Assembly: GCF_013167455.1 (NCBI RefSeq) | Contig: NZ_CP038328.1 | Direction: 5' to 3' (one strand) | Origin: Escherichia coli O157:H7 | Lineage (GTDB): Bacteria; Pseudomonadota; Gammaproteobacteria; Enterobacterales; Enterobacteriaceae | Length of the DNA stretch: 64,000 nt | Shown here: piece after piece, positions 59,052-60,176 of the stretch | Position numbering within the stretch: the stretch's first letter is position 1 | Layout of the letters: every line of letters begins with the position of its first letter | The notes under the pieces: model-generated | Databases searched by the model: none | The model's input: only the letters and a program-made list of their open reading frames with translations | Told to the model about the DNA's origin: nothing | Translations under genes and position numbers: made by a program

Positions 59052-59789
59052 ATGTATTTACACACATATCAGCACAATGATAGATTACCACCCCAGAAAC
59101 ACGATAAAGGTATAATTATGGAATTTTCCGTTATTTTTTTCTGGGTTATCACTGGTCTTATTACCATCTTATTCTTAAAATCAATAATAACCGATCTAAT
59201 AAAAAACCTAAACAAAACAGACATAGCGTTATATATATTGGCATTTTTATCAGCCGGATATACATTCCAGTATATTTACAATGACAATATATTTTCAGAA
59301 CTATGGGGAGTTGGCCTGTTTGTTACTCTGATAGTACTGAATATAGTATTTAATCTCTTTTTTAGACTCTTATTCATTCTCTCGAAAATGATATTAATGT
59401 CACGACATATAAGAAAGATGCAAAAAAAACTAAAACAGACGTCTGTGCCTGATTTTATTTATTATTCAATAGAAAAACACAACAAATATCCCATATATGT
59501 ATTACACATGCCATCAAACAATATAATTGAAATAGGCTACAATATAATAAACACCGATCTGGTCATTGGCGAAAAAATTCATTTCAGGACACTAAGCAAT
59601 CGTTCTTTATATTTTAACCTCACCCACCCCCCATTAATCGCCACAATAAAAGATGATGTGTTTTGCACTCTTCATGATTACTATAACCACAATAATGAAA
59701 CGAAATCCACTATTGACAATTACATATCAAAAATAAAGGATAATCATAATACCCCATGGTTATTAAACAACGAAAATGTTCAGGAATAA
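59052..59789 (+). CDS. Hypothetical membrane protein in very AT-rich DNA (alternative start MEFSVIFFWV)
   Basis: 245-aa ORF rich in I/N/K with hydrophobic segments. Confidence 0.4.
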   Translation: MYLHTYQHNDRLPPQKHDKGIIMEFSVIFFWVITGLITILFLKSIITDLIKNLNKTDIALYILAFLSAGYTFQYIYNDNIFSELWGVGLFVTLIVLNIVFNLFFRLLFILSKMILMSRHIRKMQKKLKQTSVPDFIYYSIEKHNKYPIYVLHMPSNNIIEIGYNIINTDLVIGEKIHFRTLSNRSLYFNLTHPPLIATIKDDVFCTLHDYYNHNNETKSTIDNYISKIKDNHNTPWLLNNENVQE

Positions 59790-59834
59790 AAAAAAAGAGA
59801 CAATTCCCGAGATAAAACAAAAGAGCATAAACAT

Positions 59835-60176
59835 ATGAACCGGAAATTCTATTTCAAAAATATCCTGTGGGGAATGTGCCCCATTATAATATCCATATTG
59901 CATCTGATATATGACACACCAACAGAAGCATCGATAAAAGTTGACTTATTTCTGATACTCAGTGGCCTGGCCCTTCCTTGTTCAATATACCTGACAAAAA
60001 CAATCACACTAAAATACACATCCATATCATTCTGGAAAAAACCTCTTTTCTGGTCTTATGGTATATATCATTTTCATCTTGTTTATATAATGATATGTAT
60101 AGTTTTAGCAATACCTTCTGCAATTATCGTTTTATTCTTTCACTTTTATCAAAACATCACCAGAAACTGGAAGTGA
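59835..60176 (+). CDS. Hypothetical membrane protein in AT-rich DNA
   Basis: 113 aa with about three hydrophobic segments. Confidence 0.4.
   Translation: MNRKFYFKNILWGMCPIIISILHLIYDTPTEASIKVDLFLILSGLALPCSIYLTKTITLKYTSISFWKKPLFWSYGIYHFHLVYIMICIVLAIPSAIIVLFFHFYQNITRNWK

Follow-up and report, generated by a model that had tools for sequence, protein, structure and literature searches.

A putative orphan immunity gene of the colicin E1 type and its membrane-protein neighbour in the SpLE1-type island of Escherichia coli O157:H7

The AT-rich stretch, its two genes, and the surrounding island

The window analysed here, a 64,000-nucleotide (64-kb) stretch of Escherichia coli O157:H7 DNA, contains two adjacent plus-strand open reading frames of very low GC content, which raises the question of whether these are genuine genes and, if so, whether they form a functional pair of small membrane proteins with a role in immunity or abortive infection, as was supposed when only the letters had been read (the original prediction). 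The coordinates of both were confirmed: ORF1 occupies 59052..59789 on the plus strand and gives 245 aa when translated from its first ATG, and ORF2 occupies 59835..60176 on the same strand and gives 113 aa. Their GC contents of 0.299 and 0.330, together with the hydrophobic segments detected in both products, bear out what had been said of their composition. The GC minimum of the whole window (0.305) was located in the 1125-bp interval beginning at 59001, which is approximately 3.2 sd below the mean (~0.488-0.489, sd 0.057). When the region 59000-60250 was shuffled 1000 times with its dinucleotide composition preserved, the longest ORF averaged 59 codons, and 0 of the 1000 shuffles reached 223 codons; a length of 113 codons was reached in 8 of them, and the second-longest ORF never exceeded 107. 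Such chance ORFs are far shorter than those observed, indicating that ORF1 and ORF2 are not artefacts of composition. Two further GC troughs were recorded with the same interval length at ~28400-29500 and ~35200-36300 (minima of 0.34 and 0.32, respectively), and they correspond to short 'hypothetical protein' genes lying between iha and the IS1/CPBP-fragment region.

The true start of ORF1 is almost certainly the ATG at 59118, judging from annotation and alignment, which gives a protein of 223 aa and makes the length of 245 aa an over-call. The start was moved because PGAP and the Sakai annotation both place it at 59118, because the ORF1 relative in an ICE-type island (L008) has a stop codon 5' of the Met that matches 59118, and because every distant homologue aligns from this Met. 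The motif AAAGG is located 8-9 nt 5' of the same ATG. The features of the locus are as follows.

58495..61314, stretch collinear with the ICE-type island L008 at 88% identity, comprising upstream non-coding DNA, ORF1, ORF2, hok, and type-B L31
59020..59049, plus strand, promoter-like site TTCATA-18-GATAAT 5' of ORF1 (consensus scan, 9/12 matches)
59052..59117, plus strand, in-frame upstream extension of 22 codons, probably a non-coding 5' leader
59118..59789, plus strand, ORF1, 223 aa (ECs_1333 / WP_000397129), annotated as 'membrane protein' or 'hypothetical'
59835..60176, plus strand, ORF2, 113 aa, putative orphan E1-type (3-TM) pore-forming-colicin immunity protein, assigned from tblastn, HHalign, invariant residues, and hydropathy
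60471..60489, plus strand, terminator-like hairpin (8-bp stem with 5 GC pairs, followed by TTTTTTT), ~300 nt 3' of ORF2
60661..60801, minus strand, intact gene of a Hok/Gef family toxin (WP_001135715, PGAP), convergent with ORF2

Promoter-like sites numbered 14 in this region against 7.9 expected, which is weak evidence in DNA so rich in AT. ORF1 and ORF2 are separated by 45 bp, within which no terminator-like site was found on the plus strand, and the hairpin at 60471..60489 is a possible end of an ORF1-ORF2 transcript as far as can be read from the sequence. This hairpin and another one at 60630-60653 are both strong and terminator-like on the plus strand. Just 5' of ORF1, a 46-bp unit was observed in two tandem copies (58804-58896, 89% match); related copies are scattered and more numerous in the ICE loci L008 and L017, and the unit resembles a REP-like or mobile intergenic repeat.

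The queried stretch is 100% identical to many E. coli O157:H7 chromosomes, and the locus corresponds to the serX-linked tellurite/urease island, which is SpLE1 in Sakai (OI-43/48 type). This island contains cah, iha, the ter cluster, nested IS66 copies, and the ure operon. ORF1 and ORF2 are positioned with terW/IS66 on one side and the Hok/Gef gene, type-B L31, a TraT fragment, and ureG on the other. The foreign origin suspected for the two ORFs gained support from this location inside an SpLE1/OI-43-type island and from the collinearity with ICE-type islands. The order ORF1-ORF2-hok is kept in ICE-like islands that carry TraU, TraG_N, ArdC, and an integrase, in which the relatives are 79-86% identical, and the block is conserved in both L005 and L008. 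When the window was compared with another such locus (L017) by blastn, only the flanks matched (58095-58659 and 61110-61394), indicating that ORF2 and hok occupy a variable slot.

Several other elements were recorded around this slot. The gene of the type-B (zinc-independent, YkgM-like) ribosomal protein L31 (61103-61366, minus strand) is found at the corresponding place in L008, L017, and L019, which are ICE-like loci; it hence appears to belong to the ICE cargo and not to be the chromosomal ykgM. At 53503-57585, insertion sequences are nested: a complete IS682 (tnpA-tnpB-tnpC) interrupts an IS66-family tnpC, to which it runs in the opposite orientation, and leaves it as two pseudogene halves. 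Between L31 and ureG (~61790-62530), an N-terminal fragment of TraT, a truncated IS3-family transposase, and a C-terminal fragment of an autotransporter beta-barrel were detected, which fits a heavily decayed segment derived from a plasmid or an ICE.

Relationship of ORF2 to colicin-E1-type immunity proteins

Immunity proteins of the E1-type have three transmembrane helices and those of the A-type have four; the E1-type proteins are constitutively expressed proteins of the inner membrane that act through intramembrane helix-helix contact with the pore domain (PMC10906532, PMC9018753). The E1-type group (PF03526) covers immunity to colicins E1, Ia, Ib, K, 5, 10, and FY, and to pyocin S5. ORF2 scored 15.9 bits (E = 0.012) against the Pfam family PF03526 (colicin E1 immunity), a model of only 55 positions, and this is under the gathering threshold of 25 bits. 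The immunity protein encoded beside its colicin on NZ_CP010182 (L002) is also sub-threshold at 23.3 bits, so that the threshold is conservative for the clade of ORF2 and L002. When ORF2 was compared with plasmids by tblastn, a full-length match was obtained to an ORF on 4980-bp E. coli plasmids (41% identity, E = 2e-22). The same method matched ORF2 to CfyI, which is the colicin FY immunity protein (E = 1e-6), and to several annotated 'colicin E1 family microcin immunity' proteins (E = 2e-4). Alignment of the ORF2-group profile by HHalign with a profile built from ColE1 Imm, CfyI, and four further annotated immunity proteins of the E1-type gave a probability of 99.3% and E = 1.4e-20 over 108 of 113 columns.

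In a joint alignment of 10 sequences, G13, P48, F66, Y84, and P94 were invariant, and Y6, W12, L59, and W67 were nearly so. The motifs that ORF2 has in common with the E1-type group are an N-terminal Y-x-K-N-x-x-W-G, L-x-P-x-S, F-W, and L-A-I-P. ColE1 Imm (Cei/ImmE1) consists of 113 aa (read from L011), which is the same as ORF2, and is collinear with it over the 108 columns. In contrast, ORF2 is just 21-29% identical to the classical members. Y22 and E58 of ColE1 Imm, which are invariant in the six classical members, are Leu and Lys/Thr in ORF2; E58 is replaced in the L002 clade too. Hydropathy, on which this assignment depends, located three hydrophobic segments of ORF2 at 7-25, 33-54, and 74-108, and both their number and the protein length match what characterizes the E1-type (~105-120 aa, three transmembrane helices). 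The N-terminus and the 55-75 loop are rich in K/R and the 26-34 loop is acidic; an N-in/C-out topology is predicted by the positive-inside rule. A PHROGs scan with ORF2 gave a match to an unnamed PHROG. Taken at the level of sequence and profile comparison, ORF2 is a homologue of the colicin-E1-type immunity family and a divergent, chromosomal member of it. It differs from the rest of the group in that it is located in an ICE-derived island of the chromosome instead of a Col plasmid, and in having ORF1 as its same-strand neighbour.

The nearest relative that is linked to a toxin is found on NZ_CP010182 (L002), together with the following colicin.

NZ_CP010182, 1651-2877, 408-aa colicin, whose PF01024 pore domain is most similar to those of colicins Ib and Ia and whose N-terminal domain (PF22348) is colicin-A-like

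The ORF2-like ORF is flanked by this pore-forming colicin gene and a lysis gene and is encoded on the opposite strand, which is the canonical position of a pore-former immunity gene. Annotated family members in Yersinia, Serratia, Hafnia, and Mixta loci exhibit the same convergent colicin-immunity layout, and the immunity gene on a ColE1 plasmid fragment adjoins its lysis gene. On NZ_CP010182 and the related 4980-bp colicin plasmids, the immunity gene of this clade is, like ORF2, often missed by gene callers and left unannotated, but it is convergent with the colicin gene and located 5' of the lysis gene, whereas ORF2 is accompanied by neither. Since ORF2 is 59% divergent from the NZ_CP010182 immunity protein, cross-protection is not to be assumed. 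The 408-aa colicin itself looks chimeric and is carried by a small ColE1-like plasmid with exc1/exc2; it was present at an identity of at least 99% in only 5 plasmid records and at 60-80% in 32, and no match to a named colicin was obtained.

A relative of ORF2 closer than 41% was not found beside a colicin among E. coli genomes, plasmids, species-representative genomes, and the protein database. The species-representative genomes gave 332 pattern matches when scanned with the ORF2 alignment, and 0 of these were confirmed. An alignment-based protein search added members of the sister clade only, and a word-indexed protein search yielded only near-identical copies of ORF2, because the gene is rarely called.

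ORF2 as a putative orphan immunity gene

The layout of a colicin operon (cxa-cxi-cxl) was not detected at ORF2, as no homologue of a colicin or lysis gene is present in the 64-kb window. The NZ_CP010182 colicin found nothing in the window by tblastn (best E = 0.56), and a profile of the pore domains of five colicins gave a best E of 0.9 with a negative bit score; as a positive control, this profile recovered colicin E1, which is outside the model, at 2.5e-54. Because the window contains neither a colicin nor a lysis gene, ORF2 is regarded as an orphan, and the locus, as judged from its gene content, is an orphan immunity gene and not a colicin operon. The earlier idea of a bacteriocin immunity protein that had lost its toxin holds for ORF2 on these results and on the E1-type homology, while it was unsupported for ORF1.

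A search of 5426 complete E. coli genomes located ORF2 in 588 (~11%), O157:H7, O26:H11, and O111:H8 strains among them; of the 589 records matched, 571 have an identity of 99% or more. Essentially all of the RefSeq records listed show no feature ('none') at the matched position; in Sakai, for instance, the gene spans NC_002695.2 1397926-1398267 (minus strand) without an annotated feature. The ICE loci L003-L008 likewise lack a gene call for it, and NCBI names a few partial copies 'colicin immunity protein'. Orphan immunity genes have been described on 243 E. coli plasmids, of which the pore-former immunities are the commonest class (146/243), in a survey of plasmids that required >99% identity to immunity genes located beside toxins (PMC12546727). 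ORF2 is likewise an immunity gene without a toxin, but it is carried by a chromosomal island and is distant from all known cognate pairs. Another orphan was observed in the sister clade (P0041, an L002-type immunity gene of PF03526); its direct neighbours, on a plasmid contig that also encodes a relaxase, are a ParE toxin gene on one side and a 'dnstrm_HI1420' gene on the other (L031, 1486-2494), and no colicin is close to it.

If ORF2 behaves as its family does, it would be a small three-helix inner-membrane protein that is made constitutively. Within the membrane, its helix-helix contact with the pore-forming domain of an E1/Ia-class colicin that enters from outside would keep the colicin channel from opening. 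The cell would be shielded in this manner from the colicin of a competitor without the cost of toxin production. We infer the expression of ORF2, its actual protection, and its specificity from what is described for the family.

The rival that survives best, though we consider it unlikely, is that ORF2 is a silent relic of a colicin operon, which hitch-hikes with the island in an H-NS-silenced or unexpressed state and gives no protection today. AT-rich foreign DNA in E. coli is typically silenced by H-NS, and ORF2 has no toxin, lysis gene, or SOS-type colicin promoter context around it. It is unannotated by PGAP and does not figure among the intergenic ORFs given as translated in the Ribo-seq paper on Sakai and its supplements, which its annotation status or the growth conditions may explain; transcript or translation evidence was not found for either ORF in the literature that could be searched. 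The departure of ORF2 from the family at two conserved positions would suit a relic, but both substitutions also occur in the L002 immunity protein, which is still beside its colicin. Frameshifted or truncated variants are occasionally present (P0011 and P0014), whereas ORF2 is full-length and collinear with the family from end to end, and the near-identity of the 571 records likewise argues against decay. Moreover, it is intact at 113 aa in islands that are 6-9% diverged at synonymous sites, with dN/dS values of 0.36 and 0.26 derived from only 8-14 substitutions. Together with the dN/dS values for ORF1 (0.36 and 0.69 in the diverged islands), they are compatible with purifying selection, where the counts for ORF2 are small. 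An orphan immunity gene that is maintained as such is hence our preferred reading of ORF2.

ORF1, its relation to ORF2, and the meaning of the locus

The hydrophobic segments of ORF1 are confined to its first ~95 residues, and the alignment of its family shows a conserved C-terminal domain that is preceded by three hydrophobic helices. AF2 modeled the full protein with a pLDDT of 80.7 and the C-domain alone (~115 aa) with a pLDDT of 88.2 and a pTM of 0.82, in which a helix, five strands, and two helices follow one another. This model suggests that ORF1 contains a cytoplasmic domain with a small beta-barrel-like core. Six K/R residues are located directly after TM3, and the charge pattern predicts an N-out/C-in orientation with the C-domain in the cytoplasm. 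The original description of two small polytopic membrane proteins suits ORF2 with its three hydrophobic segments, but not ORF1, of which only the N-terminal ~45% is membrane-embedded and the rest is a folded soluble domain.

An exhaustive HMMER search with ORF1 collected 26 cluster representatives of ~210-228 aa sharing 22-44% identity, and a word-indexed search returned close E. coli relatives only. ORF1 belongs to a sparse and fast-diverging family of Enterobacterales that is composed of lone accessory genes. No family was matched in Pfam, NCBIfam, PADLOC, or PHROGs, and fold searches gave no informative match to a solved fold. Neither ORF1 nor ORF2 matches any defence family of PADLOC-DB at E<=1, and ORF1 had no tblastn match in 50,697 phage records. 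The suggestion of abortive infection or phage defence received no support from these PADLOC, PHROGs, and phage searches.

Two candidate relationships of ORF1 were rejected. A PDB profile match of the C-domain to polyubiquitin (E = 1.9e-7) arose from a single stretch of ~27 residues ('F-x-K-T-L-T-G-K/R') that was counted once per repeat; di-ubiquitin scored just ~14 bits, and the elements of the predicted fold do not follow the order of a beta-grasp. The ORF1-family motif 'K-x-F/Y-x-K-T-L-T/S-G-R' at residues ~150-170 (~59565-59630) resembles the N-terminal beta-hairpin of ubiquitin, 'IFVKTLTGK', and this likeness was judged to be a local coincidence. An apparent tandem paralogue of ORF1 beside CRISPR-cas in L027 was a spurious ORF over a tRNA-like repeat array. 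As for A-type colicin immunity, no member of the ORF1 family matches a colicin-immunity Pfam family at E<=0.1. ORF1 is similar to the A-type proteins (Cai, Cbi, and Cni, with four TM helices) in being a small inner-membrane protein, and its gene adjoins an immunity gene, but it has three TM helices and a soluble domain of ~115 aa that the A-type proteins lack. That ORF1 might be another membrane-level protective or exclusion factor is a weak guess.

The relation between the two genes was evaluated from the loci in which ORF1 relatives occur. A 44% identical relative (L017) is located in the same kind of island and is followed by an unrelated soluble 111-aa gene without ORF2. The distant members are lone genes placed beside DUF1440 or phoH, an MFS transporter, or a tRNA array next to type I-F cas. 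Since the ORF1 family occurs without ORF2, the two are considered neighbours in a variable cargo slot and not an obligate pair. Comparison of the window with L005 gave a dS of 0.30 for ORF1 and 0.09 for ORF2, and such a threefold difference for the same loci suggests separate or mosaic histories. ORF1 and ORF2 are therefore likely to be real but functionally separate genes in a decayed ICE cargo slot, of which ORF2 is an orphan immunity gene.

Two readings that join the genes more closely are harder to sustain. It seems rather improbable that the ORF1 family represents an unrecognised class of inner-membrane protective protein against another membrane-targeting toxin, with ICEs carrying ORF1-ORF2 as a stacked 'immunity cassette'; were it true, EHEC lineages (O157:H7, O26:H11, and O111:H8) would resist particular colicins of gut competitors, which bears on colicin or probiotic control in cattle. 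Most improbable is a functional pair such as the original prediction assumed, for which a membrane toxin/effector with an E1-Imm-like protector or a two-component exclusion/abortive-infection module would be examples: the shared strand, the 45-bp gap without a terminator, the hairpin after ORF2, the adjacency of both genes in three diverged island variants, and the ORF2 frame that runs back over the ORF1 stop in L008 speak for it, but a neighbour of the ORF2 type is missing beside the ORF1 homologue of 44% identity (L017) and beside those of 22-36%, relatives of ORF2 pair with colicins, the synonymous divergence of the two genes differs, and ORF1 has no PADLOC, PHROG, or phage link.

Functionally separate genes, with ORF2 as an orphan immunity gene, are hence the reading that we retain. 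The finding is ordinary in kind, as orphan immunity genes are well known, and its value lies mainly in correcting the annotation and in a prediction of colicin resistance in EHEC that can be tested. ORF2 should be labelled as an immunity protein of the colicin E1 family; it extends the 'immunity gain', which has so far been documented on plasmids, to a gene carried by a chromosomal island. ORF1 defines a small, confidently folded family of membrane-anchored proteins in variable accessory regions of Enterobacterales. If ORF2 is active, it would confer resistance to a pore-forming colicin on EHEC, which would matter for proposals to control O157 in cattle and food by means of colicins or colicinogenic probiotics.
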